Position numbers and translations under genes: made by a program. From the IMG/VR virus record IMGVR_UViG_3300031519_000002: a DNA stretch of 64,000 nt. One strand, 5' to 3'. Below the pieces are notes generated by a model. That model did not search any database, was not told where the DNA came from, and saw only the letters and a program-made list of their open reading frames with translations. Source of the stretch: a virus. Each line of letters opens with the position of its first letter. Position 1 is the stretch's first letter. Below, piece after piece: positions 28,078 to 64,000 of this stretch.

Positions 28078-28084
28078 TATTTAT
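28078..28084 (-). promoter_or_regulatory. Late promoter
   Basis: ATAAATA overlapping the stop of the gp4-like gene. Confidence 0.6.
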
Positions 28085-35145: not shown

Positions 35146-35169
35146 ATAATACACTCCTAAGTATTATTA

Positions 35170-39463: not shown

Positions 39464-40955
39464 AAATATTACCATCGTCGGTGGCGGTACGGCGGCATGG
39501 CTAGCGGCCGCATATATTTCACGCAACATGTGGGACATTAGTCTAACAGTTATTGATAAAGAAGCAGGAAATCCTATTGGTGTTGGCGAAGCTACTGTAT
39601 TAACGTTCCCTGCATTTTTAAGAGATTGCGGCATTGATTTATCTGATTGGTTTCAAGCTGTTGACGGCACTTATAAGTCTGGGATTGATTTCCCAGGGTG
39701 GAAAAATCCTAAAGGATCTATATACCATCCGTTTTATTTAAATAGATCGTATCAAGAACACAACTGCACACAGTATGATGTATGGGCACAAAAACAAAGT
39801 GTAGACTTTAAGAAATCATCATTACCAACATTTGACGTAGCAATGGATAACAAAGTTGATATATGGGCATCGTTTTCTGCGTTAGCATATCATATCGATG
39901 CTGGTAAGTTAGTGAAACAATTAGCAAAACACTGTGGACAACATCTTACTTTAATTAAAAGTGACGTAGTTGACGTTAACAGAAACGACCAAGGTGATGT
40001 TGTAAGTTTAGGATTAAAAAACGGCACAACACATACTTCAGATTTTTATATTGATTGTACAGGTTTTGCATCAGTACTAAAAAAGCCAAAGCGTGTAGAA
40101 TTATTGGGCAACGGTAGACTGTTTACTAACACTGCTGTTGCAGGACATATTCCGTACGAAGATAAAGACGCCGAATGCACCCCTTATGTAAGTTGTCCTG
40201 CGGTTGATCATGGATGGATTTGGAAGATACCAACGCAAACAAGAATTGGTAGCGGTATGGTGTTTAATAAAGATATTACTGACATCGAAACAGCAAAACA
40301 ATATTTTTGTGATCACTGGAACGGAAGAATTAAGCCTGAAGATTTAAAAGTTATTGACTGGCAACCATACTACAGTGAAAACTTCTGGGAGGGAAATGTT
40401 GTATCACTAGGCCTAAGTGGTGGATTTATTGAGCCTTTAGAAAGTACTGGCATTGCTAGTATGACTACTGGTGTTTATAAATTAGTACAACGTATTCCCC
40501 AATATGCCTATACTCAAACAGATATTGATTCATACAATAAAGAAATGGCACATTGGTATGATGATGCTGTTGACTTTGTTAACAGTCATTATGCTGACAC
40601 AAAATGGGATACTCCTTTTTGGAATTATGTAAAAGACACACACGTCAAGTCAGACAAGCATAATTTCTATCAAAGATGGCTTAAAGATCCTAGTAGAAAA
40701 TTTTACACAAACGTCGATTCAATGACATTGTTCCATGCACCTAATTGGCATCTTTGGTTAATACAAATGGGATATCCTGTTAATAAAGATATATTAAATT
40801 TAAATGCGTTACAACTCAATGATATAAATCTAGACTTTGCTCGCCATGAAAAGATCCGTGGCATTACAAGTTTGTCTCATGCGGATGCTATTGAGTCTAC
40901 TAATTTAGGGTGCGATTGGGTTGCTCGAACAGAATCAAGAAATCAAGGAATATAA
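39450..40955 (+). CDS. Flavin-dependent (tryptophan-type) halogenase 1
   Basis: VGGGTAAW, IGVGEAT, catalytic Lys in GTYKSGI, WIWKIP, FIEPLESTG. Confidence 0.9.
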   Translation: MKEIKNITIVGGGTAAWLAAAYISRNMWDISLTVIDKEAGNPIGVGEATVLTFPAFLRDCGIDLSDWFQAVDGTYKSGIDFPGWKNPKGSIYHPFYLNRSYQEHNCTQYDVWAQKQSVDFKKSSLPTFDVAMDNKVDIWASFSALAYHIDAGKLVKQLAKHCGQHLTLIKSDVVDVNRNDQGDVVSLGLKNGTTHTSDFYIDCTGFASVLKKPKRVELLGNGRLFTNTAVAGHIPYEDKDAECTPYVSCPAVDHGWIWKIPTQTRIGSGMVFNKDITDIETAKQYFCDHWNGRIKPEDLKVIDWQPYYSENFWEGNVVSLGLSGGFIEPLESTGIASMTTGVYKLVQRIPQYAYTQTDIDSYNKEMAHWYDDAVDFVNSHYADTKWDTPFWNYVKDTHVKSDKHNFYQRWLKDPSRKFYTNVDSMTLFHAPNWHLWLIQMGYPVNKDILNLNALQLNDINLDFARHEKIRGITSLSHADAIESTNLGCDWVARTESRNQGI

Positions 40956-40956
40956 T

Positions 40957-42438
40957 ATGAAAATAGTTATTGTTGGTGGCGGAACTGCTGGATGGTTAGC
41001 CGCACTTATGATTAGTAAAATCAAACCAGAACATACAGTAACATGTATTGAAAGTTCTAAGATTGGCATCATTGGTGCTGGAGAAGGTAGTACAGGCGCA
41101 CTAACAAACATTATTCAAAATGTAATGTGGGACTTTGGAATTGATGAACAAGACTTTATTAAAGAGTGCGATGCAACAATTAAATTAGGCATTAAGCACA
41201 TTGGCTGGGGTCCTGATATTAATAAATCATACTACGGTCCGATTGATGGTACTCCGACTGGTGGGCAAGAATCTGACATTATTTTTCAACATGCATTAGG
41301 GTATAGAGAACAAGAGTTACTTCACCTTTCAACAGACTTGGGTTATAAAATACATCATAATAAAAATAGTTTTGTTGAACACGAAGGTAATCATTCATAT
41401 CATTTTGATGCACACAAAGTAGGAAAATATTTTAAAAAAGTCTGCACAGACGTAAAACACATTGACAGTGAAGTAAAAGATGTTATAATAGATAGTGAGC
41501 AAGGCTGGATTACTAGCTTAAACCTTACTAACGGACAGACAATAAGCGGTGATATGTTTATTGATGCTAGTGGATTTAATCGAGTGTTAATGAATGCAGT
41601 GGGCGGCAAGTGGAAAAGTTATAAAGAACAGTTGCCAGTTAATAGTGCATTGCCATTTATATTACCTTATGAGGAAGATGAAATTATTCAGCCAGTAACT
41701 AACGCATGGGCGCAAAATAACGGCTGGTGTTGGAATATTCCAACACTTAACAGACGAGGTTGTGGTTACGTATTCAGTGACGAGTTTGTAACGGCTGACC
41801 AAGCACATGCTGAACTTGAAAAAACTATTGGACGTAAAGTTGACCCAATTAGGCATATTAAATTTGATAGTGGTAGACAAGAAAAACTTTGGATTAAGAA
41901 CGTATTATCAATTGGCCTAGCTGGATCGTTTGCAGAACCATTAGAAGCAACTAGTATTCATACTACTATATTTCAATTAAAGCATTTTATATTTGGAACA
42001 TTAGGCCAAACAAGAGAAGACACTTGTCAAGAATTTGCAATAGACATGTATAATAAAACAAATGCACACATGTATGACGGATTGCGAGATTTTTTAATTG
42101 CACACTATACATGCGGCCGCAAAGATACAGAGTTTTGGAAGTACATTGATAGTGGTGCAACTAGTACAGAATTTGTTAAAACAATGCACGAAATGTGTAA
42201 ATTGCGAGTTCCTAACTATACGTTATTTCCAAGGCACGAAGGTAGTGCAGGATGGCCACTGTGGAGTTTTGTTTTAGCAGGAACCGGAAAACTAACAGAC
42301 ATAGTTGCTCAACAAGAGCTTAAATTCAATCTAACTGATCACAAAGCTGATGCCGAATACTCGTATCATGTGCAAGGCTATCATGAGAATAGTGAAAATT
42401 TACCAGACAATACACAGTATATAAAAGGTATGCAATAA
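40957..42438 (+). CDS. Flavin-dependent halogenase 2
   Basis: VGGGTAGW, ATIKLGI, WCWNIP, FAEPLEATS; start MKIV at 40957. Confidence 0.9.
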   Translation: MKIVIVGGGTAGWLAALMISKIKPEHTVTCIESSKIGIIGAGEGSTGALTNIIQNVMWDFGIDEQDFIKECDATIKLGIKHIGWGPDINKSYYGPIDGTPTGGQESDIIFQHALGYREQELLHLSTDLGYKIHHNKNSFVEHEGNHSYHFDAHKVGKYFKKVCTDVKHIDSEVKDVIIDSEQGWITSLNLTNGQTISGDMFIDASGFNRVLMNAVGGKWKSYKEQLPVNSALPFILPYEEDEIIQPVTNAWAQNNGWCWNIPTLNRRGCGYVFSDEFVTADQAHAELEKTIGRKVDPIRHIKFDSGRQEKLWIKNVLSIGLAGSFAEPLEATSIHTTIFQLKHFIFGTLGQTREDTCQEFAIDMYNKTNAHMYDGLRDFLIAHYTCGRKDTEFWKYIDSGATSTEFVKTMHEMCKLRVPNYTLFPRHEGSAGWPLWSFVLAGTGKLTDIVAQQELKFNLTDHKADAEYSYHVQGYHENSENLPDNTQYIKGMQ

Positions 42439-43586
42439 TGAAAGTATTAGTTATTGGCGATGTAATAATCGACAAATATATCTATGGCACTTCACAACGT
42501 TTAAGCCCTGAAGCTCCTGTACCTATTGTTAAACACTTACATGAAGTCGAAACACTTGGCGGGGCAGGACTTGTTTACGAAAATTTAAAAAGTTTAGGTG
42601 TTAATGTAACACTAATGGAATCTGATCATGGATACAGAAGTGTTAAGACCCGAGTCATTTGTGATGGTCATTATGTTACACGTATTGACGATGACAAACG
42701 TGCAAGCGGTAACGCAGTATTAGCTGATGTATTGTCTAATGACTTTTCGCAATACGAATATGTAATACTCAGTGATTATGACAAAGGTGTATTAGATAAT
42801 GCAAAAGAAATTATTGCACACATTAACAAATTTAATTGTAAAATAATTGTAGATCCTAAAGAACATGCTAAACATTATAAAGATGCGTGGTTAATAAAAC
42901 CTAATCATAGTGAGTTTACTAAGTTTGGATTTACAAGCTGGCAGGGTAATATCATTACAACTAATGCAGGCAATAATGTAGTTGCCACAATAGATAATGT
43001 AGATTACGATATTCCAGTTGAGCATGTAGAAGTGTCAGATGTTACAGGTGCAGGAGATTGTTTCTTGGCCGCATTTGTATACGGATTAACAAAGCAATAC
43101 AATTATAAGCATTGTTTAGAACTTGCCGTTAGGGGTTCTAGAGAAGCAGTTAAACATGTAGGCACACACTTGCTTACAGTAACTGATATTGAGGATACTA
43201 TTGTGTTTACTAATGGAGTATTTGATATACTACACATAGGGCATTTAAAGCTTCTTAGCCATGCTAAAACACTAGGTAATCGCCTAGTAGTGGGCATTAA
43301 CAGCGATTCCAGTGTTAAGCGATTAAAAGGTGATTTAAGACCCATTAACGATCAGCACACCCGCAAGGAAAGCCTATTAATGCTTGGTTTTGTAGACGAA
43401 GTAATAGTGTTTGAAGAAGACACTCCGTTGGAAGCAATCACCAAATTAGAGCCAAGTATTATAGTAAAAGGCGGTGACTATACAGTAGAGACCGTAGTAG
43501 GAAACGAGTTAGCCAACGTGGTTATATTTCCTATACTAGAAGGACATAGCACAACTTTAATAGTTGACACACTAAACAAAAGATAG
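42438..43586 (+). CDS. hldE: Bifunctional heptose-7-phosphate kinase / heptose-1-phosphate adenylyltransferase
   Basis: RLSPEAPVP, SDYDKG, DVTGAGD; TNGVFDILHIGH, KGGDY, HSTT. Confidence 0.92.
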   Translation: MKVLVIGDVIIDKYIYGTSQRLSPEAPVPIVKHLHEVETLGGAGLVYENLKSLGVNVTLMESDHGYRSVKTRVICDGHYVTRIDDDKRASGNAVLADVLSNDFSQYEYVILSDYDKGVLDNAKEIIAHINKFNCKIIVDPKEHAKHYKDAWLIKPNHSEFTKFGFTSWQGNIITTNAGNNVVATIDNVDYDIPVEHVEVSDVTGAGDCFLAAFVYGLTKQYNYKHCLELAVRGSREAVKHVGTHLLTVTDIEDTIVFTNGVFDILHIGHLKLLSHAKTLGNRLVVGINSDSSVKRLKGDLRPINDQHTRKESLLMLGFVDEVIVFEEDTPLEAITKLEPSIIVKGGDYTVETVVGNELANVVIFPILEGHSTTLIVDTLNKR

Positions 43587-43592: not shown

Positions 43593-43609
43593 ATATAAAA
43601 GAGGTGAGA

Positions 43610-44437
43610 ATGAAAGTATTAGTTACAGGATATAAAGGATTTATTGGGAGTTATATTTCCAATTACCTAACAGAACAAGGTCACGAAGTTGAAGGTTATG
43701 ACTGGGTAGAAAACGTTGTACCGCATGTTGAAGGGTATGATTGGGTTGTGCATTGTGGTGCAATTTCAGATACTACCGAACGTGATGTAGAAAAAGTGTG
43801 GCAACACAATTATGAATTTACATTAAGATTGTTACAAATTTGTGACCACTTTGGAACAAATATCCAAATAGCAAGTACAGCCGCAGTGTATGGTAACATG
43901 ACAGAGTTTAATGAATCTAGTGCAGTGTATCCACAAACACCGTATGCATGGAGTAAGTTTTTAGTTGACAAGTTCCTAAATGATAACGGCTACGATAGCT
44001 TTAGTATGAATGTACAAACTTTTAGATATTTTAATGTGTACGGACCCGGTGAAGGACACAAAGGCGATCAAATGAGCCTAGTTAGTAAGTTTCAAAAACA
44101 GGCTTCGCAAGATGGTGTAATTAAATTGTTTGAAGACAGCGACAAGTATTTTAGAGATTGTATTTGTGTACACGATATTGCAGTAATACAAGAAAAGCTA
44201 ATGCACACAGACGAAGCTGGCTTATTTAATATGGGCACTAACAAAGCGCCAAGTGTAGAAGAAGTTGCTAGAACAATAGCTAAAAAGTATGATGCAAAAA
44301 TTGAATACATTCCGATGCCAGATAAGTTAAAATCACAATACCAAGAATACACTTGTGCTGACAATGCTAAGTTACACAATGCTGTACCGATTAGACATTG
44401 GATGACTGTAGAGGAGTATATTAATGCAACCGACTAG
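43610..44437 (+). CDS. hldD: ADP-L-glycero-D-manno-heptose-6-epimerase
   Basis: TGYKGFIG, GAISDTTE, YAWSK, RYFNVYGPGEGHKG.QMS, YQEYTCAD. Confidence 0.88.
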   Translation: MKVLVTGYKGFIGSYISNYLTEQGHEVEGYDWVENVVPHVEGYDWVVHCGAISDTTERDVEKVWQHNYEFTLRLLQICDHFGTNIQIASTAAVYGNMTEFNESSAVYPQTPYAWSKFLVDKFLNDNGYDSFSMNVQTFRYFNVYGPGEGHKGDQMSLVSKFQKQASQDGVIKLFEDSDKYFRDCICVHDIAVIQEKLMHTDEAGLFNMGTNKAPSVEEVARTIAKKYDAKIEYIPMPDKLKSQYQEYTCADNAKLHNAVPIRHWMTVEEYINATD

Positions 44438-44828
44438 ACTAGAAGGTAAGGTAGATAAAGGCTGGGGTTACGAATTAATTTGGGCCACTAACGAAAAATA
44501 CTGTGGAAAGATTATGGTGTTTAATCGAGTAGGCGCTAAGTTTAGTATGCATTTCCATAGGGAAAAGGACGAGTCTTGGTTTGTAAACAATGGCAGATTC
44601 TTACTTAATTATATTGACACTGATACTGCTGAGTACAAAAGTCAAGAACTTGTAGAAGGTTCAGTATGGCATAATCCGCCATTAATGCCGCATCAGTTAG
44701 TATGTATGGAAGCTGGAAGTAGTATTACTGAAGTAAGCACTCCTGATAGTGTAGAAGATAATTATCGCATTGGTCCAGGTGATAGCCAAAAGATAAAGCC
44801 AGCAATGGAAATTATAGATCAAGAATAG
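44424..44828 (+). CDS. Cupin, D-lyxose/D-mannose isomerase-like
   Basis: KGWGYE, YCGK, SMHFHREKDESW, PH, EVSTPD. Confidence 0.78.
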   Translation: MQPTRLEGKVDKGWGYELIWATNEKYCGKIMVFNRVGAKFSMHFHREKDESWFVNNGRFLLNYIDTDTAEYKSQELVEGSVWHNPPLMPHQLVCMEAGSSITEVSTPDSVEDNYRIGPGDSQKIKPAMEIIDQE

Positions 44829-53464: not shown

Positions 53465-54028
53465 TTATGATATATCTACTAAACTATGGGCAAATTGATA
53501 TAAATTATCAAAAATTTCAGTCTGCTTTTTAAGATCTTTGTTTGCAAACGTATTTAACTTCTTAACAGTTTCTGCTCCGTATCCTGTACGTAGTAACACA
53601 GGTCTTGCTTTTGCTTTTACTGCGGCCTTAAGGTCACTAATTTTATCTCCAACATACAAACCGTTTTTCCAATCACATCCTACTTCTGCGGCCGCACGTT
53701 TAAACATTCCTACATTAGGCTTTGCGTAAATATCGTCTTTAAGACTAGTGGTTGAATAATAAAGGCCATTAATGCTCTTGCATCCAATGTCGCCTAATAA
53801 TTTAAGCATATGATTATGTACTAGGTCAACATCAACTTCGTCCATTATTCCTTTACTGATCCCACCTTGATTAGTAAGGATAACAACGTCATACCCCTTA
53901 TCTCTAATCATTTTTACAGCTTCTAAACTACCTTCAATTGGTGTAAACTGCTCAGGGCGAGTTACATATGTTCCAATATCTACATTAATAGTACCATCTC
54001 TGTCTAATCCAATTACCGGTGTACTCAT
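53465..54028 (-). CDS. gmhB: D-glycero-D-manno-heptose-1,7-bisphosphate phosphatase (HAD IIIA)
   Basis: LDRDGT, TNQGGI, KPNVGM, VGDKISD, RTGYG; start MSTPV. Confidence 0.82.
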   Translation of the reverse strand: MSTPVIGLDRDGTINVDIGTYVTRPEQFTPIEGSLEAVKMIRDKGYDVVILTNQGGISKGIMDEVDVDLVHNHMLKLLGDIGCKSINGLYYSTTSLKDDIYAKPNVGMFKRAAAEVGCDWKNGLYVGDKISDLKAAVKAKARPVLLRTGYGAETVKKLNTFANKDLKKQTEIFDNLYQFAHSLVDIS

Positions 54029-54029
54029 G

Positions 54030-54890
54030 TTACGGTCTCCATCTATCATCTGACCAGCCTACTTGTTCTTTATTAAACCAATCTAGTTCAAAAAGTAAAA
54101 TATCATCAGTGGCTGTTAATGTTTGCTTCCATGTTTCAACAAACTCTAAAGTTTTATTATTTAATTTGCAAACGTGTTCTTGTATAAAATTTGCGGCTTC
54201 GTGTGTGAGTGGATGCACTTCGGGCTGACTCATATGTAAATGTTCTGGATTTTTACTAGGCACACTTGTTGGTCTTGTTTTAAAAAACTCGTCGTCGACT
54301 CCAAAGCCTAGTGCATTAAGTATTGGTGGACAAGTAGTTTTAATATCATCTTTGTATTTTTCTAGTATTGCTCTACAATCTTCTAATTCTAAATATTTGT
54401 TTTTAGTATTAAATTCTTTACTAAGTTCGTTCCAGCCCTCTGTTGGCTCTCTAAAGCCAGTAGATATAACATTACATCCAATATTTTCTAATGCTTTGTG
54501 TGTACTGCTTATTAATGCACAGTCTCTCATTGTTGCCCATATAGGATCTGCATAGTCCCAAGAATTTTCATAACGATAATTGTTTACAATAAATGCTTCA
54601 TCAGTATTATTAGCGTTAAAGTTACCTGGTGTCCACCAACCTCGGCCCATATGATATCTGTCTTCGCGGAAAAAACTAGACCACTGTAGTAAGATGATAT
54701 CGTCTTTATTAAATTTGTGTTCAGTGTTTGCTTCCCATAGTCGGGTTGATATGTATTGATTACCTGCACCACTACGTCCCCAGTTCTCTCCAACAGTGGC
54801 ACCTTCTTCTACGTAATGATGTATTAATACATCTGCCCAAGTGGGATAAAAATACTGTGTTAGACTGCATCCAAATGCAAATACCCTCAT
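54030..54890 (-). CDS. SGNH-like hypothetical protein
   Basis: FGCSLT, NWGRSGAGN, QWS...RED, C-terminal HP. Confidence 0.55.
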   Translation of the reverse strand: MRVFAFGCSLTQYFYPTWADVLIHHYVEEGATVGENWGRSGAGNQYISTRLWEANTEHKFNKDDIILLQWSSFFREDRYHMGRGWWTPGNFNANNTDEAFIVNNYRYENSWDYADPIWATMRDCALISSTHKALENIGCNVISTGFREPTEGWNELSKEFNTKNKYLELEDCRAILEKYKDDIKTTCPPILNALGFGVDDEFFKTRPTSVPSKNPEHLHMSQPEVHPLTHEAANFIQEHVCKLNNKTLEFVETWKQTLTATDDILLFELDWFNKEQVGWSDDRWRP

Positions 54891-56350
54891 ACTAGATGCC
54901 TTAATAACTCTAGCATTAACTTATGTGGGATTGTTTTTGATCGATCAAAATTTATTTTGTGCTTACAAATCTCATCAATTTGCATTAGTACTTCATCGGG
55001 CAACATATTATATTGTGTTAAAATGCTATCAGTATCAAACAAATCTAATCCATGCATTACTAGTGCAACATTATATTCGTTAAACAACACTTTCTTTGTA
55101 TATGATGTAAAATCATCAGCAATGGGCAATCGCGTCTTCCACATTTTTAAATTTTCTTGTAGTGTATGTGGCAATGGAGTACTTGCTACTTTGTTCCAAA
55201 ACGGCGTATCACGCCTATTGCTAACATAGTGCAATGCAATAAAGTCTCTAACATTTTCCATTATAGCATTAACTTCTATGTTATATCGATTAATACTTTG
55301 TTCATTATAATTAATCATACGACGAGCTAATAAGAATGCTTGATTGATACTAGTACCAATACTACTTGCTTCTAAAGGTTCTACAAAACTAGCACTAAGG
55401 CCAATAGCACAAACATTTTTAATCCAAGGACGATCAACTGCACCTGGGTCAAATTTAATATGTTTTGCTACGTCAATACTATGTCCTAAATATTTTTCAA
55501 CTTCTATTTGTGCCTGTTCTGCTGTAATAAAGTTACTGTCAAAAATATACCCGTTTCCTTTACGCCCTTGTACCGGTATACGAAACATCCAACCAGCATC
55601 CATTGCTTTAGCTAGAGTCCATAACGGAGTTTCTTCTTCTTGGGGAGTAGGAAATACAATAGCTTCCTTCATTAGCAAATGATCACTATAACTATTCCAA
55701 GTTGCTCCCAGCTTTCCAATTAATAGTCTAGAAAATCCTGTACAATCAATATAAAAATCATAATTATATGTTTTAGTTTTACTTGTAATGTAATCTATAC
55801 CTTGGGTGTTGACTGCTACATCTACTATTTCATCATCAAATACATTACATCCTTTTTCAATTGCAAACTTAGTTAAAAAATTATTTAATTTTTGTGTATT
55901 AAAGTGATATTGACTAACTCCAGTATCGTTTGGACGCTCATCTATAAATTTATTAAATGGTACATTGTTATTCCAAAGATAATCACCCGTCATGTCTCTT
56001 GGATTGCATTGTTCACCAATAAGTTTTGCAAATGCGGCAGGTAATCCTAAATGTTCAAACACAAAAGGAGAATGTACACTTTGAAGATATGGTTTATCTC
56101 CCCAATCTTCAAACATAATTCCTGTTTTGAATGTTGCATCACATTCATTAATAAGTTGTGCAGTCTGTATGCCAACATGATCCATAAATACTGACCAATG
56201 TTCTGTTGTCCCTTCACCAACTCCAATAGTTCCAATTTTTTCTGATCGGATAATGTCTACTTGATAGTTTGGATAAGTGGTTTTTAGAATTAATGCTGAT
56301 ACAAATCCTGCTGTACCGCCGCCTACTACTGCTATTTTCATGTCATTCAT
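54887..56350 (-). CDS. Flavin-dependent halogenase 3
   Basis: VGGGTAG, IGVGEGT, ATFKTGI, WMFRIP, FVEPLEASS. Confidence 0.9.
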   Translation of the reverse strand: MNDMKIAVVGGGTAGFVSALILKTTYPNYQVDIIRSEKIGTIGVGEGTTEHWSVFMDHVGIQTAQLINECDATFKTGIMFEDWGDKPYLQSVHSPFVFEHLGLPAAFAKLIGEQCNPRDMTGDYLWNNNVPFNKFIDERPNDTGVSQYHFNTQKLNNFLTKFAIEKGCNVFDDEIVDVAVNTQGIDYITSKTKTYNYDFYIDCTGFSRLLIGKLGATWNSYSDHLLMKEAIVFPTPQEEETPLWTLAKAMDAGWMFRIPVQGRKGNGYIFDSNFITAEQAQIEVEKYLGHSIDVAKHIKFDPGAVDRPWIKNVCAIGLSASFVEPLEASSIGTSINQAFLLARRMINYNEQSINRYNIEVNAIMENVRDFIALHYVSNRRDTPFWNKVASTPLPHTLQENLKMWKTRLPIADDFTSYTKKVLFNEYNVALVMHGLDLFDTDSILTQYNMLPDEVLMQIDEICKHKINFDRSKTIPHKLMLELLRHLV

Positions 56351-56918
56351 CTAATGTATACCATCCCGTTACAATGTACTTACTTCCTTTGTAAATAGGA
56401 TTGCCGCGATGTGGATGGGTAAATGCTGTAGGGAAAATACTTAGCTTGCCTGGTTCGGGCTTAACTTTAACTCCTTGGTATAGGAATTCTGTTTCGCCGC
56501 CTTCTTCTACAGCATTTAAGTAAACTGTGTAAGCAAGTACCCGCGAACACGAACTTAGTGATGCGCTTTCACAATGCCAAGCATGATAACCTTGGTGCGG
56601 CATAGTCTTTTGTATACTCATTCCTTTAGGAGAATGCTGTAAAACGTTACCTAAACTTTCATACTTAGTACGATACTTTTCTGTGTACACTTTATTAAGA
56701 GTAGCATAGAAATAACGACACAAGTCATCGTCTGCATGGTATCTTGAATTATGATTTGCCCAATCCATAATAATTCTTTCGTCTTGATTCTTTGTACTGC
56801 TTTCAAGGTTTGTTAATTGACTGGCAGACATTTCTTCAAAGCGTTTAATTATTTGCTTACACCAATCAATCGGAAAAACATTCGAGTATTCTTCAAGTCC
56901 GTCAAAATTATCTTTCAT
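56343..56918 (-). CDS. 2OG-Fe(II) oxygenase (prolyl-4-hydroxylase-like)
   Basis: YHAWHCE, YLN...GGETEF, HRGNP, KYIVTGW. Confidence 0.88.
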   Translation of the reverse strand: MKDNFDGLEEYSNVFPIDWCKQIIKRFEEMSASQLTNLESSTKNQDERIIMDWANHNSRYHADDDLCRYFYATLNKVYTEKYRTKYESLGNVLQHSPKGMSIQKTMPHQGYHAWHCESASLSSCSRVLAYTVYLNAVEEGGETEFLYQGVKVKPEPGKLSIFPTAFTHPHRGNPIYKGSKYIVTGWYTLDE

Positions 56919-56929
56919 TTATTTTTCTC

Positions 56930-57649
56930 CTATATAAAGAATTGTTGATTAATTCTATAATTTTTATCTGTAAACATGCTTGGCTTTACATATGCCGAGT
57001 GTAGCAAGGATTGATTGTACAATACCATTCTATTATACTGCATTGGAACCATTCCAATCATTTTCCAATCATGTGAACTATCAGTTATGTATTTTGTTAC
57101 TTTAGTAGTACCAGTAACATCCATTCCGATATCTCCGTTTATTAGTTGTACTCGGTCAGTAAAGCATGTTTCGCCTCCAAACTCGTAAAAGCTAGTGCCG
57201 CCGTTACACTCGTTAGCATTGTTTAAGTAAATTGTACTAGCAAGATTTGTTCCTGAAGGATTATCTTGATGCGGCACAAGTGGCGGCAACTTATCTGACT
57301 GCATAACATTAACCATAAAGGTTGCATTCATAAAACTATTTTGCATGTATTCTTGTGGTTTATGTTCCATAATCTCTGGAAAATATGTTCTACTCAATTG
57401 ATCAAATGCCCAAGCCATACCGCTTAACTCATAAAATGCATTTACTCTCTCGGCAGGATTGCCTCCTCTAATACGTTTATTAGTTGATGCTGGAATATCT
57501 AATGCAAGTTGTCGCACCATATCTGGATTCTTATAAAAATTATCAACTACTAATACTGGAACTTTATGTTGTCCAAATCTCCATAGCCTTGCATCAAAGT
57601 CTCGGTTAATATCAAATGTTTCTACTTCGTTAATTGTATTTTTATTCAT
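56930..57649 (-). CDS. DUF6445-like 2OG-Fe(II) oxygenase-fold protein
   Basis: VVDNFYKNPD, PHQD, YLN..GGTSFY, NRMVLY..LHS, R..Q. Confidence 0.75.
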   Translation of the reverse strand: MNKNTINEVETFDINRDFDARLWRFGQHKVPVLVVDNFYKNPDMVRQLALDIPASTNKRIRGGNPAERVNAFYELSGMAWAFDQLSRTYFPEIMEHKPQEYMQNSFMNATFMVNVMQSDKLPPLVPHQDNPSGTNLASTIYLNNANECNGGTSFYEFGGETCFTDRVQLINGDIGMDVTGTTKVTKYITDSSHDWKMIGMVPMQYNRMVLYNQSLLHSAYVKPSMFTDKNYRINQQFFI

Positions 57650-58244
57650 TTATACGTTCCTTAATAATAAAATTAGCACTAATTGTTGCTCTTACTTCTG
57701 TGCTATTGTTAGGCGAAACATAATGTTCTAATGTGCTTGGAAAATATATAATGTCACCTTCGTCTAGTGGGGGTGTTATTCTATTGTTAAACTTAAAAGG
57801 CTGTGTAGTTAACTTTGGTAAGTCTGATTGATGGAAATAATCATATGCATTTTTGTAAAATGTAAAGTTTCCGCTATTAGTAGGCGTGTGCATCATATAT
57901 GCACAACTAATAATAGATTCTCCAGCATGATTGTGAACTTCTTGGAATTGCCCATTGGTGTATCTATTGAGCCAACATTCAATCCTGTAATCTCTTGGAA
58001 GATCTAGTTCGTAAATTTCCAAGTACTCATTAAGACCTGCAATAGCCGACTTAATAAACTGTTGCCAAGGTAAGCTATCAGCATCTCTATTACCGAAAGT
58101 TGTATCTACGTTACTATTCCATGTTGGAACTTCACTAAAGTACTCATCGCCTTTGAGTACTTCAGTAAAATCCGCTTGTATATCTACATGGTTGGCTAAC
58201 TTTGCTTTATATACCGGTACAGAATATATAGATTGATGTGTCAC
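57642..58244 (-). CDS. 2OG-Fe(II) oxygenase (TIGR02466-like)
   Basis: WLN....FQEVHNH, SCAY, FPSTLEHYV, RATISAN. Confidence 0.82.
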   Translation of the reverse strand: MTHQSIYSVPVYKAKLANHVDIQADFTEVLKGDEYFSEVPTWNSNVDTTFGNRDADSLPWQQFIKSAIAGLNEYLEIYELDLPRDYRIECWLNRYTNGQFQEVHNHAGESIISCAYMMHTPTNSGNFTFYKNAYDYFHQSDLPKLTTQPFKFNNRITPPLDEGDIIYFPSTLEHYVSPNNSTEVRATISANFIIKERINE

Positions 58245-60073
58245 TAGTTCTTCATTTCGATCATTACACTATATTCTGGCAAATAGCAGTATTCCATTTC
58301 ACTATTGTAAAGTGTACGAATTGCATCATCTAGTGTTTCTACTAACGGCTCACCACCTAAGTTAAAACTAGTATTAAAGATAATTGGCACATTGGTTTGC
58401 GCATAAAATTCAGTAATAATATCATAATAGTGCTTATTTTGTTTTCTTGTTACAGTTTGTATGCGACATGTTCCATCAACATGTATAATACTAGGAATTA
58501 AATCTTGTTTACCTTCTTGGCAATCCATTGCATACATCATATGCGGACTTTCTTCCAGTCCTCGCATATCAAACCACTCACTTGCATGTTCAGCAAGGAT
58601 AGTTCCTGCAAATGGACGGAAATATTCTCTACGCTTAACACTATTAACATGATCTTTACCGTTCGGGTCAGTTGGATCATACATAATACTTCTGTTACCT
58701 AATGCACGTGGGCCGTTTTCACTTTTTCCTTGAAACATTGTTACAATGTTTTTATTACGAATTAGATCAACAACTTTTTTATTATCTGCTTCTACAACTG
58801 TTGCTCCGTATTTGTCAGCAACTTCTTTAATTTCTTCTGCGCTATAATGATATTCAAATCCTTCGTAGATTGTTTCTGCTAACGGACGTACTTTAGTATC
58901 TTTAGTTGTTTGATGGTACATCATCATTGCCGCACCGATTGCAGTGCCTGCATCGTTACTAACTGGCTCTACATACAAAGTAATACCTTCTTTTTGTAGC
59001 TTATCAAGATACCAATAGTTAGCAACACAGTTTAGTGCATAGCCACCACTTAGTACAACATTTTTGTTGCCACTCATTTCAACTGCTTTCATAATAAGAC
59101 TTAAAACTTCTTGTTGTGATTCTGTTTGTACAGCATATGCTAAGTCTCGACGGTTTTCTAGTGTAGTTAAATCAACTTTACTATTAATTACGTCTTCTGA
59201 TGTGTCAAGATAATCATATTTCCCTTCATTAATAACAGCCGCATTAGGATATGTTGGAACAACAACATTTCTATCACTTGTTCTCCACTTGCCACCATTG
59301 CCATCTGTATATATTGTTGGAATATTACTATTAGGTTTGCCATATGGAGCAAGTCCCATAGTTTTTCCTGCTTCAATTGGTTGGAAGCCACAATATTGTG
59401 TTACTGCTTCATATGCTTTTACAATACCTGCTGTATCGTCAAGTACTAGTTCGTGATATCCTTCTTCACCTTCTCTATCTGACGGAATATACGGAATACA
59501 TGTACTTGGGAACGGGCCATTTCCGCCTTGATGTTTATACAATGTTTTAAATGCATCGGGATATGCACAATTAAAAATACTTTCAGTTTCCCATGTCATA
59601 AATTCATCGTTAAAAATACCAGTATTGATATTCATAGGTATAAATGTTCCAGCACCATCAACAACTACTGCTGTTGCTGTTTCCATACCTGATCTATAAA
59701 ATGCACAAGCCGCATGTAACTTATGATGTACACTAGATAGATCAACTACTTGTCTATGTTCGTATTTTCCATCTTGCGAGTATGCGCTGTCTGAACGATC
59801 AATTAATCCTAACTTACGTGCTAGACCAGTATACATGTCTCCACCACTAAAATCAATTCTACTTGAATCTGCTAATGGTTGCGTGTGTGCAACTACCAAA
59901 TAATCAAGTTTATCAGTGTAGTCTAAAAATTTAATCATTGCGGCTAGCGGCCCACCGTCATATTTTTTACGTGTTAGTCGTTCTTCTTCGATTGCAAACA
60001 CAATCTCTCCGTCTTTAAGAAGAACAGCGCCGCCGTTATGTCCTCTTGTAATTGCTCCAATCCACTGCGTCAT
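58244..60073 (-). CDS. Carbamoyltransferase (NodU/CmcH/TobZ family)
   Basis: EEERLTRKK, HH..HA, DGAG, GKTMGLAPYG, GG.ALNCVAN, GPRALGNRS, RPFA, HVDGT.RIQT, NTSFN. Confidence 0.93.
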   Translation of the reverse strand: MTQWIGAITRGHNGGAVLLKDGEIVFAIEEERLTRKKYDGGPLAAMIKFLDYTDKLDYLVVAHTQPLADSSRIDFSGGDMYTGLARKLGLIDRSDSAYSQDGKYEHRQVVDLSSVHHKLHAACAFYRSGMETATAVVVDGAGTFIPMNINTGIFNDEFMTWETESIFNCAYPDAFKTLYKHQGGNGPFPSTCIPYIPSDREGEEGYHELVLDDTAGIVKAYEAVTQYCGFQPIEAGKTMGLAPYGKPNSNIPTIYTDGNGGKWRTSDRNVVVPTYPNAAVINEGKYDYLDTSEDVINSKVDLTTLENRRDLAYAVQTESQQEVLSLIMKAVEMSGNKNVVLSGGYALNCVANYWYLDKLQKEGITLYVEPVSNDAGTAIGAAMMMYHQTTKDTKVRPLAETIYEGFEYHYSAEEIKEVADKYGATVVEADNKKVVDLIRNKNIVTMFQGKSENGPRALGNRSIMYDPTDPNGKDHVNSVKRREYFRPFAGTILAEHASEWFDMRGLEESPHMMYAMDCQEGKQDLIPSIIHVDGTCRIQTVTRKQNKHYYDIITEFYAQTNVPIIFNTSFNLGGEPLVETLDDAIRTLYNSEMEYCYLPEYSVMIEMKN

Positions 60074-60118
60074 AGTTTTATCTTCCTTTGTTATGTTTTA
60101 ATTTTATTAGTTCGATTA

Positions 60119-60730
60119 TTAGTCAAAAGTAGGTGTTGGATTATAATTAAAATCAACTACAAATACTTTTCTTTCATTAAGTGTAGGATATGTTCCATGA
60201 AATACCCTACCGTCCATAATTACCATTTTACCTGCTTGTGTAGGATGTGTACGGTATTGAATAGTATTATCTTCTGTAGGCTGTAATGTAAATAAATTTC
60301 CAGCATATGGAAGATTAATATCTGCGTCACAATCATCTAAAAACAATATAGCTGTTAATTGCTTTCCTAGTATATGATCATGTAGTAAACTGTATGCACC
60401 CGTTGGATATCTTACACCCCATGCTTTCTTAAACTGCCCAACATTAATCGGTAATTGTTGTAATTGAAATTTTATAAAACTTTGAAATTCTAGTCTAGGA
60501 TCAATATCAGTTGGATAATCCATATTAGGCTTATAAAATTGGACGCCACCACTGAATCCTGTATTTTTGTGTCCTTCATTTTCGTCTTTAAATAAAGCTA
60601 AAAACTTTTTCCACTTAGGATAGTAAATATCATCTATAATCCAAGTTTCAATTTGATTAGGCAATACTGCTTTAGGTAGCTCAAGCGGTTCTGTATATGA
60701 ACTATTTAAGAATTGTCCCGGATCTGACAT
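60119..60730 (-). CDS. Putative 2OG-Fe(II) oxygenase
   Basis: AWGVRY...YSLLHDH, LTAILFL, FHGTYP..R. Confidence 0.65.
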   Translation of the reverse strand: MSDPGQFLNSSYTEPLELPKAVLPNQIETWIIDDIYYPKWKKFLALFKDENEGHKNTGFSGGVQFYKPNMDYPTDIDPRLEFQSFIKFQLQQLPINVGQFKKAWGVRYPTGAYSLLHDHILGKQLTAILFLDDCDADINLPYAGNLFTLQPTEDNTIQYRTHPTQAGKMVIMDGRVFHGTYPTLNERKVFVVDFNYNPTPTFD

Positions 60731-61789
60731 TTATTTTCCGGTCCTGCCTAAAATTTGTGCTGATTGAGAGCCGTGTGTTACACCATTTGAATGGACAACT
60801 CCGTGTGTAGGACAAACTTCACCTTCTTGTTGCTGTGCAACATAGTTACCAGTATATGATCTTGGCTTGCCTAAACGTTTGCGAACACTTGTAATAATCT
60901 TCTTAAAACTTTCATCGTTTAATTCCATTACTTCATCGTTAAATCGTTCAACTGCATCTTCCATTGTAAGTCTAATAGGACTAAACTTGCGTCTACCCTC
61001 ACCTAAATCAACAATGTCAAAGTCTGGACTATCAGGATATGAAATATTAATAGGGTAAGTACTGCCAATAACACTTGTACACGTAGTACCGAGTGCTTTT
61101 GCCATATGTTGTCCTAAACTATCGCACCCAATAAAATGATCTGCAATTTGAATAATGCTAGACCAAACTCTTACATCACTAATTTGTGGAATTGCAATCG
61201 GCACTGTCGGAGTTTCTTCGATTGTAATTGGAAATTCGCTCATTACAACAACAGCATAATCATCACGTAAGTCTTTACAAATACGAATTACATCGTTGAG
61301 GTGGAAACTTCTAGAAGTGCTATCAATTACAAAGTCTCCCATGTTCTCTGCGGTTCTACCAAATGGTTGGAATACTACAACTTTGTCTTTTTTAGTCATT
61401 GCTTTAATTTCTTCAATGACTTTAAAGCCTTGCACCATTTCTTGCTTGTTCATATGTATTGTTGGGTCTGTTAACTCTCTAAGGCCTTCGTTATTAATTG
61501 CAATATCAAATGCCTGTGCTAAACTACATTTTTGATTATAGTATTCCCAAACTCTATATGGTTCTGGTGAGAAGCAATCCCTGTCTTTAATGTAATCTTT
61601 AAACAAGTTTTTATGCCAATTGTCGTATGCTAGTTCGTGTAATACAGGATGTCCTTTATAAAAATCCATTCCTCCTTCACAAACAATAATAAAATCTTTG
61701 TCTGTTTCGTATAACTTTTCAAATGCAGGAATAGATGCAACTACTCTGCCGGCGCCACCGTTTATAAAATATGCTTTTTTGCGTGTCAA
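60731..61789 (-). CDS. GT9-like glycosyltransferase (candidate heptosyltransferase)
   Basis: GGAGRV, VFQPFG, FIGCDSLGQHMAKALG; TTG start with AGGAGAG SD. Confidence 0.7.
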   Translation of the reverse strand: MTRKKAYFINGGAGRVVASIPAFEKLYETDKDFIIVCEGGMDFYKGHPVLHELAYDNWHKNLFKDYIKDRDCFSPEPYRVWEYYNQKCSLAQAFDIAINNEGLRELTDPTIHMNKQEMVQGFKVIEEIKAMTKKDKVVVFQPFGRTAENMGDFVIDSTSRSFHLNDVIRICKDLRDDYAVVVMSEFPITIEETPTVPIAIPQISDVRVWSSIIQIADHFIGCDSLGQHMAKALGTTCTSVIGSTYPINISYPDSPDFDIVDLGEGRRKFSPIRLTMEDAVERFNDEVMELNDESFKKIITSVRKRLGKPRSYTGNYVAQQQEGEVCPTHGVVHSNGVTHGSQSAQILGRTGK

Positions 61790-61811
61790 GGTTCTCTCCT
61801 GTGTATAGAAA

Positions 61812-61818
61812 TATTTAT
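61812..61818 (-). promoter_or_regulatory. Late promoter heading the tailoring-enzyme operon
   Basis: ATAAATA upstream of SD and TTG at 61789, downstream of a terminator. Confidence 0.65.
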
Positions 61819-61852
61819 TGGGAGAATAGATTGCTGACAGTAAACGTGGTTC

Positions 61853-61888
61853 AAAAAAAATCCCTGCATAAACTAATATACAGGGATT
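61853..61888 (-). terminator. Rho-independent terminator
   Basis: AATCCCTG...CAGGGATT stem followed by a T run on the minus strand. Confidence 0.8.
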
Positions 61889-61908
61889 ATAATTTTATTT
61901 AAAAAGAA

Positions 61909-62697
61909 CTATTTCTTACCAGCGGCTTTTTGACCTGCAACTGCAACATCAACAGCAAATGCGCCATCTCTGTAAGGATCTGCTGGATCACTTGATGGAC
62001 TTGGGTCTCTCATATCCTTTGGTACTACTGGAAACATCATAACTGCTTGCCACGGTTCGTATCCACGTGCAGTCATAACTGCTGGATGATCACGTAATCT
62101 CTGTCTGTAATCTAACCAAACTTGTTGTATCGAATCTGGTGCATCTGTTTGACCAACTTTCGCATCAGTAGCGTGTAATTCGTCGTCTCTTACATCTCTA
62201 ACTTCTTCCCATGTAAGATTCATGTTTGCGCCTGTTGCCGCCCAATCATGAACTCCTAATACAAATTCATTAGTTGTAAAGTCCCATGTAATGTTCCATT
62301 CGTCATAGACATCTCTTGGTTCTATATTAGATGTGTATTCAACGTCTTGATATCCGTCTGGTGCGTCCCAAAGAACTTCCCATTCTCTTTCGCGCCGCAT
62401 TTGGACACCTGATTCTTTGCCGGTGTCGTTACCAATTTCGCATAGTAACGGATTGGCTTTGCAATCAACTGTTACTCTCATGATATCAGCGCCAGCAGGT
62501 CTTTCTAAATCATTCTTGCGCCACAGGCACCATCCTGATTCTTTTCCATAGTCATCTGTCGATGGATCATTTTGTACTTCAAAAGTTAAAAATTCTGGAC
62601 CATCATATGTAAAGGTGCCAGTACGCCCTTGCGTAAAACTATTTGTTCTCCACTCATCCCATATTGGGTAAGTAAAATCTTGACTAATTATTCTCAT
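61909..62697 (-). CDS. Tail fibre assembly chaperone with N-terminal extension
   Basis: WEEVRDVRDDEL..TD...W..YRQRLRD.P. Confidence 0.75.
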   Translation of the reverse strand: MRIISQDFTYPIWDEWRTNSFTQGRTGTFTYDGPEFLTFEVQNDPSTDDYGKESGWCLWRKNDLERPAGADIMRVTVDCKANPLLCEIGNDTGKESGVQMRREREWEVLWDAPDGYQDVEYTSNIEPRDVYDEWNITWDFTTNEFVLGVHDWAATGANMNLTWEEVRDVRDDELHATDAKVGQTDAPDSIQQVWLDYRQRLRDHPAVMTARGYEPWQAVMMFPVVPKDMRDPSPSSDPADPYRDGAFAVDVAVAGQKAAGKK

Positions 62698-62716
62698 TTT
62701 ATTCAGCTCCTAAAAC

Positions 62717-62723
62717 TATTTAT
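62717..62723 (-). promoter_or_regulatory. Late promoter
   Basis: ATAAATA, then AGGAG, then ATG at 62697. Confidence 0.65.
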
Positions 62724-62726
62724 CAT

Positions 62727-63566
62727 TTACATAAAGGTTATTCGAACAACACCCGAACCACCCTGGCCTGATCCACCTGCACAACATTTTGCCCAGTTTC
62801 CACAATATGAACTAACGCCTGGCATGCCGCCACCTGATGGCCATTCAATATGGCATCCACAGTTACACCATGCTTCGTTAGTAGCACTAGTTGACATTTT
62901 TCCGATCTTTGGCGGTGAACCTGAACCCGAAAATGGATAGTTACAGTGACAGTTACCGTGTCCGTGAATCCATCCTGTTGATCCCATTGCACCAAAATCA
63001 GCGCCAAAAATTCCACATATATTACAGTTTTCACAGCTAAAATGAGTGTGCCTTGGACCCCATGCGTCTCCATTACACATCCAACCACCACAGCCGCCTA
63101 CTGTACAAAAATTCGATAAGTTATATCCGTTTACATAACTTTTACAACCCATACCTGCACCACAAGTGTGTGACTTACCACATGGCCATGAACCACCGGC
63201 GCATACACTGTATTGGCATCCTGGACTTGTATTAATTGTCTTTGAACCGTAGTTTCCACCAGCACCACCAATAGTAAACGAACAACAGTTACAGCATGTA
63301 TGACCTGGGCCACCGCCACCGCCACTCCAAACTTCAAATGTTACTGTACTTGCACCATCTGGTACACACCAATAACAACATTTACCATTTGCTTGTTCAC
63401 AACAACCTGATTGTCTAGCACACTGATGACATTGCATGCCACGTGCATTGTAGATCCATTGTACTCCTAGGTTATTGCCATTTCCGTGTGCAATATCATC
63501 ACTAGTTACTGTACCATTTACAATACTGTCTGTTGCTACTTTTTTATAACTTGCATATGTTGCCAT
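62727..63566 (-). CDS. Cys/Gly-rich tail fibre-type protein (glycine-rich domain)
   Basis: W.VP.G..V.FEVWSGGGGG...GGSGVVRITF scaffold; 30 Cys and 10 Trp in 279 aa (hand count). Confidence 0.75.
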   Translation of the reverse strand: MATYASYKKVATDSIVNGTVTSDDIAHGNGNNLGVQWIYNARGMQCHQCARQSGCCEQANGKCCYWCVPDGASTVTFEVWSGGGGGPGHTCCNCCSFTIGGAGGNYGSKTINTSPGCQYSVCAGGSWPCGKSHTCGAGMGCKSYVNGYNLSNFCTVGGCGGWMCNGDAWGPRHTHFSCENCNICGIFGADFGAMGSTGWIHGHGNCHCNYPFSGSGSPPKIGKMSTSATNEAWCNCGCHIEWPSGGGMPGVSSYCGNWAKCCAGGSGQGGSGVVRITFM

Positions 63567-63665
63567 TTGTTCTCTTTCCTTTTAAGCGAATGTTATTTTG
63601 ACCATTCCTGATCCACCCATATTTCCAGCCGCACAACATTTTGCCCAGTTTCCACAATATGAACT
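62779..63665. repeat. 35-bp perfect direct repeat shared by the two Cys-rich paralogs
   Basis: gcacaacattttgcccagtttccacaatatgaact at 62779-62813 and 63631-63665. Confidence 0.9.
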
Positions 63666-64000
63666 CTGTGCTGATTGTCCACCACCTGCTGGCCAGTTAA
63701 CATAACATGCACAGTTGCACCACGCTTCTGCGTTTGAGCCTGCTGTACGTTTAGCTACAAAGGGTGCCGCTCCTGATTGTTGCCAGTCTGCTGATTTACA
63801 TTGGCATTGTCCTTGACCACCTTTGACGCCAGTTGATCCCATAATTCCAAAGTCTGCTCCAAATATGCCGCAAATTAAACAGTTTGCACATGATTGTGTA
63901 TGTCTTGGTCCGTGCGCATCGCCATTACACATCCAACCACCACATGCACCTGTAGTACAGAAGTTACTTAGGTTATGTCCATTAATATAACTCTTACAAC
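63582..64000 (-). CDS. Paralogous Cys/Gly-rich fibre protein, 5' end beyond the window
   Basis: Frame open to the window edge (CKSYINGHNLSNFCTTGACGGWMC...) and collinear with 62727-63566. Confidence 0.8.
   Translation of the reverse strand, partial: CKSYINGHNLSNFCTTGACGGWMCNGDAHGPRHTQSCANCLICGIFGADFGIMGSTGVKGGQGQCQCKSADWQQSGAAPFVAKRTAGSNAEAWCNCACYVNWPAGGGQSAQSSYCGNWAKCCAAGNMGGSGMVKITFA

Follow-up and report, generated by a model that had tools for sequence, protein, structure and literature searches.

A late-promoter cassette of candidate glycan-tailoring enzymes adjoins Cys-rich tail-fibre genes in T4-like cyanophages

Gene content of the locus

The stretch of viral DNA analysed here (IMG/VR virus record IMGVR_UViG_3300031519_000002; 64,000 nucleotides in all, hereafter the window) ends in a block, positions 53,465 to 64,000, in which Cys/Gly-rich genes of tail-fibre type are followed on the minus strand by an operon of nine enzyme genes, headed by a glycosyltransferase-like protein with the fold of family GT9. 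According to protein searches, the window derives from a T4-like cyanomyovirus of the Kyanoviridae, near S-SSM7. Its carbamoyltransferase shares 66-67% identity with those of the Synechococcus phages S-SSM7, S-SSM6a and Sf-FS3 (66% for the S-SSM7 protein), and its surroundings include a gp9/10-like baseplate gene, the tail sheath, gp15, terminase, UvsX and gp32. Every element listed in an initial annotation of this DNA, made from the letters alone, was present at its coordinates on the minus strand, and the description of nine tightly packed enzyme genes, with their families, operon structure and late-promoter reading, held throughout. In the direction of transcription, the features of the block are as follows.

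63582..63998, minus strand: Cys/Gly-rich fibre-tip-like paralogue, partial (5' part beyond the window end), 15 Cys in 138 aa
62727..63566, minus strand: Cys/Gly-rich protein of 279 aa (phrog_4205), candidate distal fibre or adhesin component, 30 Cys and 19.7% Gly
61909..62697, minus strand: 262-aa protein with a tail-fibre assembly chaperone-like C-terminus (Pfam Phage_tail_APC, E 8e-7; phrog_8746 and phrog_4912, tail fibre assembly)
61859..61888, minus strand: intrinsic-terminator-like hairpin in intergenic sequence, a 12-bp stem followed by a T-run
61812..61819, minus strand: T4-type late-promoter-like box AATAAATA, ~22 nt 5' of a TTG start
60731..61789, minus strand: GT9-fold (GT-B) glycosyltransferase-like protein, 352 aa, virus-specific family phrog_8954 (AlphaFold2 and Foldseek; no Pfam match)
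60119..60730, minus strand: HxH oxygenase-like protein, 203 aa, related to 2OG-FeII_Oxy_5, HDH motif (phrog_81 '2OG-Fe(II) oxygenase', E 1.8e-8); absent or duplicated in relatives
58244..60073, minus strand: NodU/TobZ-type O-carbamoyltransferase, 609 aa (Carbam_trans_N and Carbam_trans_C)
57642..58244, minus strand: 2OG-FeII_Oxy_5 family protein (Pfam), 200 aa, HNH...H motif
56930..57649, minus strand: DUF6445 protein (Pfam), HQD...H motif, labelled 'minor coat protein' in S-SSM7
56343..56918, minus strand: prolyl-4-hydroxylase-like Fe(II) oxygenase dependent on 2-oxoglutarate (2OG), 191 aa, HCE...H motif (Pfam 2OG-FeII_Oxy_3)
54887..56350, minus strand: flavin-dependent halogenase, one of three in the window (PF04820, Trp_halogenase, 320 bits)
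54030..54890, minus strand: SGNH-fold esterase or acyltransferase-like protein, 286 aa (AlphaFold2 and Foldseek; no Pfam match)
53465..54049, minus strand: GmhB-like HAD-IIIA heptose-bisphosphate phosphatase, DRDGT motif (best NCBIfam match GmhB)

The initial annotation had counted at least two Cys-rich genes in tandem; the window holds one partial and one complete copy, and relatives carry three tandem copies. The 279-aa protein is homologous to P-SSM2 GC299/GC301 and S-CAM1 SXBG_00224-226, and an alignment of 35 family members contains ~25 invariant Cys positions. The CC, CxxC and CxCxC groups are invariant and the residues between the Cys vary, a pattern for which disulfides and metal sites are both conceivable.

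The terminator and late promoter that had been proposed ahead of the enzyme genes proved well founded. The hairpin and its T-run precede AATAAATA, downstream of which come AGGAG and the TTG start of the GT9-like gene; a TATAAATA-like box just 5' of a late gene and free of a -35 element is the form of a T4-type late promoter. The heptamer ATAAATA occurs in the window only 14 times where 29.6 copies would be expected, and 12 of the 14 copies stand just 5' of same-strand gene starts, mostly structural and including those of the sheath, gp13 and the gp9/10-like gene. One copy, at 62717-62723, lies just 5' of the 262-aa chaperone-like gene. As judged from the sequence, this distribution matches the behaviour of a T4-type late promoter. 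The motif 5' of the GT9-like gene is retained in 38 of 43 distinct upstream regions of relatives, the flanks having diverged.

The nine minus-strand genes are separated by gaps of -20 to +45 nt. Six of the identities were confirmed by Pfam, PHROG and NCBIfam (carbamoyltransferase, 2OG-FeII_Oxy_5, DUF6445, 2OG-FeII_Oxy_3, halogenase and HAD-IIIA). Because the 352-aa and 286-aa proteins had no Pfam match, both were folded from alignments; single-sequence PDB searches with either returned only noise (e.g. sirtuin-5, E 0.008). At the level of the fold, the labels 'GT9-like' and 'SGNH-like' were right. The model of the 286-aa protein (AlphaFold2 mean confidence, pLDDT, 91.6) has only SGNH enzymes, esterases and acyltransferases, as its top Foldseek matches; Ser9, Gly41, Asn44 and His226 are invariant or nearly so, and the acid is supplied as E224-x-H, not DxxH.

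The carbamoyltransferase combines Carbam_trans_N (Kae1-like, 97 bits against a cut-off of 24) with Carbam_trans_C (YrdC-like, 196 bits against 27), and its best PDB matches are 7xb6, NovN, TobZ and GdmN (E 1e-42 to 1e-51 for the last three). The '2OG' labels fared unevenly: the label suits the HCE...H protein, whereas the 203-aa and 200-aa proteins carry HxH and not HxD. The HxH motifs (LHDH and VHNH, at 60119-60730 and 57642-58244) may imply a metal site or chemistry that differs from that of ordinary hydroxylases. The 191-aa oxygenase reaches 47 bits with 2OG-FeII_Oxy_3 (cut-off 27), and its best PDB matches are 5hv0 and 3itq (E 2e-7; prolyl 4-hydroxylases of B. anthracis and PBCV-1), so that among the operon oxygenases it is predicted to be of prolyl 4-hydroxylase type, closest to the enzymes that act on proteins. 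At the end of the operon, the GmhB-like protein finds its best match in NF006506 (133.5 bits, below the cut-off of 178) and has the HAD-IIIA DxDGT motif as DRDGT.

The operon halogenase belongs to PF04820, carries GGGTAG and WMFRIP (the FAD-binding GxGxxG and WxWxIP-type motifs) and matches Trp halogenases and VirX1 in the PDB. Two more full-length flavin-dependent halogenases lie in tandem on the plus strand (39450-40955 and 40921-42438), behind gp15 and a NUDIX gene; the structural region holds three divergent halogenases within 17 kb, and no flavin reductase was seen in the window.

Conservation of the association across phages

A common gene order was found in S-SSM7, Sf-FS3, P-SSM2 and S-CAM1, which represent three genera of Kyanoviridae: a large tail fibre, small genes, two to three Cys-rich proteins, a low-Cys chaperone-like gene, the GT9-like gene and the carbamoyltransferase, followed by an adenylyltransferase, a kinase, a small HAD protein, a cupin and an epimerase, and then by more tail or neck genes. 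The Cys-rich proteins of these phages contain 8-12% Cys and 14-18% Gly and share a homologous central domain (E 1e-8 to 1e-14). Every cyanophage lineage with the GT9-like/carbamoyltransferase pair (S-SSM7/S-SSM6a/Sf-FS3, P-SSM2/P-SSM5 and S-CAM1) has two to three Cys-rich proteins and the chaperone-like gene directly 5' of it. Conversely, a tblastn search of 50,697 phage records with two members of the Cys-rich family as queries detected the family only in phages that have the pair; the S-CAM1 members were seen by local BLAST only. The co-occurrence check suggested in the initial annotation was thus positive, and exclusive within these records.

The operon of the window recurs in 80 IMG/VR loci, compared over a range of 58-97% GT9-like identity, with some 2OG genes gained or lost and, in the more distant loci, heptose genes re-inserted beside the cassette. 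On this comparison, the predicted stable core consists of the fibre-tip genes, the GT9-like gene, the carbamoyltransferase and the nucleotide-heptose genes, and the variable, accessory part comprises the SGNH gene, the halogenase and the oxygenases. The initial annotation had remarked on the lack of a scaffold synthase. This is no puzzle, because the conserved core, a nucleotide-heptose pathway with a transferase and a carbamoyltransferase, is glycan chemistry. Cassettes with the GT9-like gene are very common in marine viral metagenomes: the protein has 3,955 homologues, and 497 IMG/VR stretches were confirmed.

The GT9-like protein also has distant homologues, at 23-28% identity and with the motifs GGxGR, PEPY and CDSxxxH retained, in two N4-like Vibrio phages, SBP1 and K479, and in the Aeromonas phage HJ05. 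Each of the Vibrio phage genes has a large tail-fibre gene on one side and a large tail gene on the other, and no genes of sugar pathways are near; the HJ05 gene is surrounded only by hypothetical genes that lack annotation. A search for related loci with three distant members as queries found nothing. In the N4-like Vibrio phages, the tail protein just after the homologue (L087:7742-10519 and L088:8747-13678 in our locus set) is Cys-dense near its N-terminus: residues 100-300 hold 8-9 Cys per 100 aa. This tail protein has no homology to the Cys-rich family of the cyanophages.

A GT9-fold protein with an Arg in place of the catalytic Asp

The AlphaFold2 model of the 352-aa protein (pLDDT 90.5) shows the two Rossmann domains of a GT-B fold, with the last ~28 residues disordered. 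Its top Foldseek matches are 3tov, 1psw, 6dfe, 2h1h and TibC (E 7e-11 to 8e-8), so that the head of the PDB fold search consists of GT9 enzymes only, namely a Veillonella GT9, WaaF, WaaC and TibC. A profile of 55 relatives matches WaaF and WaaC at the donor-binding motif: CDSxGQH, corresponding to the C-lobe D-S/T-x-x-x-H, is kept, and D223 and H228 are invariant in the 55 sequences and align to WaaC/WaaF. The window protein has no match to PF01075 in Pfam even at E<=1, its sole NCBIfam match is RfaQ (E 2.6e-4, far under the cut-off), and the S-CAM1 homologue just reaches the PF01075 cut-off at 22.6 bits. The family forms 393 clusters at 50% identity, and the nearest Atlas clusters are all viral.

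The N-lobe of the family begins with GGxGR, in which Arg15 is at least 90% conserved. In the MAFFT alignment this Arg shares a column with the Asp in the G-D motif of the E. coli enzymes WaaC and WaaF, and the catalytic Asp of GT9 is therefore lacking at that position. WaaC Asp13 and TibC Asp110 are the proposed catalytic base, and loss of this residue abolishes or largely diminishes TibC activity (PMC4358343). Because Arg15 replaces it, the protein is not a canonical heptosyltransferase. The features of the bacterial autotransporter heptosyltransferases (N-terminal beta-barrel, beta-hairpin thumb and four-Cys iron finger; PMC4358343) are also missing from the model, which starts at Rossmann strand 1 and has no Cys4 insertion. 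On the strength of the model, we describe the protein as GT9-fold with a predicted non-canonical acceptor site and do not file it as a GT9 member. ADP-heptose would be its donor, as suggested by the co-located HldE-like, GmhB-like and HldD-like genes.

Nucleotide-heptose genes and a second glycan island

Genes for a nucleotide-heptose pathway lie outside the operon, on the plus strand behind gp15, in the order NUDIX gene, two halogenases, HldE-like, HldD-like and small cupin genes.

42438..43586, plus strand: HldE-like bifunctional heptose-7-phosphate kinase / heptose-1-phosphate adenylyltransferase (NCBIfam), outside the operon and of the same pathway
43604..44437, plus strand: HldD-like ADP-heptose 6-epimerase of the short-chain dehydrogenase/reductase type (TIGR02197, E 2.8e-63)
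44424..44828, plus strand: small cupin (PHROG, phrog_7851), part of the conserved heptose cassette of all lineages

In P-SSM2, S-CAM1 and S-SSM7 the HldE homologues stand directly behind the carbamoyltransferase. Genome-wide absences were tested on five relatives (S-SSM7, Sf-FS3, P-SSM2, S-CAM1 and the 262-kb relative G002), and an SIS-type GmhA was found neither in them nor in the window. The genes annotated as 'phosphoheptose isomerase' in S-SSM7, P-SSM2 and S-CAM1 were considered as the missing GmhA and rejected, as they have no SIS match and only faint HAD-like matches; from their sequences, these genes (L001:17468-17803, L003:13024-13368 and L004:12922-13245) are probably small phosphatases. 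Since no SIS-type GmhA was found, a cupin may perform the sedoheptulose-7-phosphate isomerase step. Some support for a cupin as candidate isomerase comes from the minus-strand gene at 8054-8818, whose product joins a second heptose-1-phosphate adenylyltransferase-like domain (TIGR02199, E 9.5e-23) to a cupin of phosphomannose isomerase type. A late-type ATAAATA box lies ahead of this gene at 8824-8830.

This fusion gene falls in a second glycan island of ~20 genes (3868-18946, minus strand) between a helicase and UvsX, which encodes two GT8, two GT25, two sulfotransferases, three methyltransferases, DUF6165 and DUF6071-like proteins, and a weak GT9-like gene at 13826-14584. Elsewhere, inside the structural module, a TnsA-like endonuclease gene (28081-28518, minus strand; Tn7_TnsA-like_N, E 6.6e-23) also has a late-type box ahead and is possibly a homing or mobile endonuclease.

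Possible fibre tailoring and competing explanations

From the gene identities, folds, operon structure, conserved late-promoter motif, synteny and co-occurrence observed, we infer a donor sugar, an acceptor and each chemical step as set out below. Tentatively, we regard the locus as a late-expressed glycan-tailoring cassette functionally tied to the distal tail-fibre module, with which the phage would decorate its own adhesin. The phage HldE-like, GmhB-like and HldD-like enzymes would make a nucleotide-activated heptose, a cupin possibly replacing GmhA, and the virus-specific GT9-fold protein would move the heptose onto a phage structural acceptor, for which the Cys/Gly-rich fibre-tip proteins encoded directly upstream are the likeliest candidates. 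The NodU/TobZ-type enzyme would then O-carbamoylate the sugar, in the manner of the role proposed for WapO on HepII of the Pseudomonas LPS (lipopolysaccharide) core, which bears a 7-O-carbamoyl group (PMC8005017). The oxygenase of prolyl-hydroxylase type, the remaining oxygenase-like proteins, the halogenase and the SGNH enzyme would be lineage-specific accessories, which may modify the same protein or glycan further.

There is bacterial precedent for such chemistry in TibC and AAH, which heptosylate adhesins in the cytoplasm (PMC4358343). According to a review, cyanobacterial LPS lacks Kdo (3-deoxy-D-manno-oct-2-ulosonic acid) and heptose (PMC4390846); the usual GT9 acceptor would thus be missing in the host, which would be why the phage carries the donor pathway. 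More generally, we infer that the GT9-like family serves the tail fibre, with a host donor sugar where one is present and a phage-borne pathway where it is not. Vibrio and Aeromonas hosts are expected to make ADP-heptose for the LPS cores of Gram-negative bacteria. In mycobacteriophages, virion glycosylation was reportedly found by Freeman et al. in 2023, phage glycosyltransferases encoded beside structural genes modifying virion proteins. Fibre tailoring accounts better than the other explanations considered for the late promoter, for the exclusive linkage with the Cys-rich fibre genes, for the setting in N4-like phages and for the presence of a prolyl-hydroxylase-type enzyme. A more explicit version, in which the Arg-variant enzyme heptosylates the Cys/Gly-rich tips through Cys thiolates or hydroxyproline, carbamoylation of the sugar or protein follows, hydroxylation, halogenation or acylation are added in some lineages, and the tail fibres of N4-like vibriophages are served by host ADP-heptose, is doubtful.

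The initial annotation had framed the modification as chemistry in the style of RiPPs (ribosomally synthesized and post-translationally modified peptides). That framing finds no support, as the candidate substrates are folded proteins of 260-356 aa with invariant Cys positions, conserved along their whole length, and are not short precursors with a leader and a core; nor did Pfam identify a protease or a family of the RiPP recognition element type among the operon proteins. Collagen-like G-X-Y repeats, sought as possible prolyl-hydroxylase targets, were absent from the window fibre genes (none of at least 5 units) and from seven related loci (none of at least 6). When GT9-like residues 1-325 and the 279-aa Cys-rich protein were modelled as a complex, both runs scored 0.00, which gives no answer and counts neither way.

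Several points weigh against fibre tailoring. The co-occurring genes are adjacent and come from only three to four lineages, so co-inheritance as one mobile block could explain the pattern; position itself is weak evidence, because the structural regions of cyanomyoviruses are hot spots for the insertion of auxiliary genes (PMC3037559). The Arg at the place of the catalytic Asp leaves transferase activity only putative (PMC4358343). Virion proteomes, as published for S-SM1, S-PM2 and Syn9 in the portion of PMC3037559 consulted, all come from phages without the cassette. The closest P-SSM2 homologue of the halogenase lies ~60 kb from the cassette, and the operon genes therefore need not all share a substrate. 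Finally, PF01075 has matches above the cut-off in the Synechococcus elongatus control genome, so host acceptors of GT9 type are conceivable, and the ~20-gene island with its GT8 and GT25 enzymes, of the type that extends lipooligosaccharide or LPS, suits envelope remodelling as well as it suits virion glycans.

Remodelling of the host envelope would have the heptose pathway, the GT9-like protein, the carbamoyltransferase and the GT8/GT25/sulfotransferase island build or decorate host LPS or capsule-like glycans during infection and so mask receptors, either excluding superinfection or protecting progeny against adsorption to debris. Sullivan 2005 and 2010 and Iyer et al. 2021 interpreted the genes in this way (PMC1079782, PMC3037559, PMC7824862), and the interpretation draws strength from the GT9-family gene of the cyanobacterial control genome and from the match of the GT9, GT8, GT25, heptose and carbamoyltransferase genes to the assembly of the LPS inner and outer core (PMC8005017). 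We nevertheless consider it unlikely. Late-promoter control is ill timed for a change to the surface of a cell about to lyse, the canonical acceptor is missing from the host on the evidence of the review cited above (PMC4390846), and the catalytic Asp is replaced in the GT9-like protein. Flippase, ligase and export genes were not identified among the scanned window genes, and the exclusive link to Cys-rich fibre genes and the N4-like tail-gene context are left unexplained.

A secondary-metabolite factory has been suggested for S-SSM6a by Iyer et al. 2021. Its product, made during infection or pseudolysogeny, would be a small molecule of sugar or amino-acid type that is halogenated, hydroxylated and carbamoylated and serves as an antibiotic, toxin or signal. 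This reading accords with a carbamoyltransferase closest to the natural-product enzymes NovN, TobZ and GdmN, with a halogenase closest to free-tryptophan halogenases and VirX1, and with a layout like that of a biosynthetic gene cluster (PMC7824862). Against it, Pfam found neither a scaffold-forming enzyme nor an exporter in the operon, and the accessories come and go among close relatives while the GT9-like, carbamoyltransferase and heptose genes persist. It also gives no reason for a tail-fibre linkage across genera and in N4-like phages, and one of the oxygenases is of a type that hydroxylates prolines in proteins. We judge this explanation improbable.

A hot-spot mosaic, in which a small heptose/transferase/carbamoyltransferase module sits beside unrelated oxygenases, a halogenase and an SGNH gene with only the promoter in common, earns little credence as an account of the operon. 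The accessory content does vary among the 80 related loci, the closest P-SSM2 halogenase homologue is found elsewhere in its genome, and hypervariable regions are documented in cyanomyoviruses (PMC3037559). The S-SSM7-like clade, however, keeps the same set in the same order, with overlapping stop and start codons, across GT9-like identities of 58% to 97%. For the accessory genes taken by themselves, a mosaic origin is possible.

T-even coliphages are familiar examples of phages with glycosylated DNA, and phage carbamoyltransferases acting on 5-hydroxymethylcytosine offer a further precedent for DNA hypermodification, here with heptose or carbamoyl groups on hydroxymethylated phage bases. A gene for a deoxynucleoside monophosphate kinase of T4 gp1 type (34534-35154, minus strand; DNMK, E 2e-14) beside the tail sheath gene would fit, but this explanation, the main alternative in the initial annotation, is now highly improbable: no hydroxymethylase of the thymidylate synthase family was found in the five relatives' genomes by a search whose positive control worked, no TET/JBP match was found in a search without a working control, and the genes lie in the late structural block and not in the replication block.

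Relation to known systems

The closest functional parallels are the adhesin heptosyltransferases TibC and AAH (PMC4358343). The phage protein shares their GT-B fold and ADP-heptose donor motif (Foldseek E 6e-8 to TibC), and, just as the genes for TibC and AAH neighbour that of the adhesin which these enzymes modify in the cytoplasm, the putative phage acceptor is encoded adjacent to the GT9-like gene. It differs in lacking the beta-barrel and the iron finger and in carrying Arg at the position equivalent to Asp110. The acceptors differ as well, being a beta-helical autotransporter for TibC/AAH and putatively a Cys/Gly-rich protein for the phage.

By fold and profile, the best matches are WaaC and WaaF, and with WapO these represent the same heptose-plus-carbamoyl chemistry and the same HldE/GmhB/HldD donor pathway (PMC8005017), predicted here from the genes. 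The phage protein departs from WaaC in the change of Asp13 to Arg and in not reaching PF01075, and its gene stands under a late phage promoter among tail genes, in a host whose LPS is reported to be free of Kdo and heptose (PMC4390846).

Direct descriptions of the same genes exist in the cyanophage 'LPS gene clusters' and the 10-gene cluster of S-SSM6a (PMC1079782, PMC3037559, PMC7824862). As far as the consulted portions of these papers extend, the cluster was published as 'LPS genes' by Sullivan 2005 and 2010 (PMC1079782, PMC3037559), and the S-SSM6a version was presented as a secondary-metabolite or capsule-decoration system by Iyer et al. 2021 (PMC7824862); the proposals ranged over host-surface change, stuffer DNA and secondary metabolite. 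The cluster itself is already known and has stood in the literature under the name 'LPS genes' for twenty years. Those portions mention neither the link to Cys-rich fibre genes, nor the late promoter, nor the Asp-to-Arg change, nor the N4-like homologues (PMC1079782, PMC3037559, PMC7824862). As far as the literature found goes, the one-to-one Cys-rich fibre-tip link, the conserved late promoter, the Asp-to-Arg GT9 variant and the N4-like tail-gene context are new.

The cyanophage halogenase VirX1 (PDB 6qgm) belongs to the same flavin-dependent family (E 8e-42), although bacterial Trp 5- and 6-halogenases resemble the window halogenases more closely than VirX1 does. The glycosylated mycobacteriophage virions attributed to Freeman et al. 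2023 are said to differ from the cyanophage case in the families of the transferases, in the sugars and in what is modified, namely capsid and tail tube.

Implications

The Arg-for-Asp GT9 variant is of enzymological interest in itself, and the acceptor question is directly testable with the existing isolates S-SSM7, S-CAM1 and P-SSM2. Because reviews state that the host makes no LPS heptose, heptose would be a clean phage-specific tracer. If fibre tailoring is correct, the adhesin would be the first of any phage to be heptosylated and would parallel the adhesins glycosylated by TibC/AAH, and virion glycosylation would reach beyond mycobacteriophages to phages of Gram-negative hosts, both T4-like and N4-like. 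Decoration of the receptor-binding fibre tip would, if true, be relevant to host range, to adsorption and to the stability of virions in seawater for viruses that rank among the ocean's most abundant.

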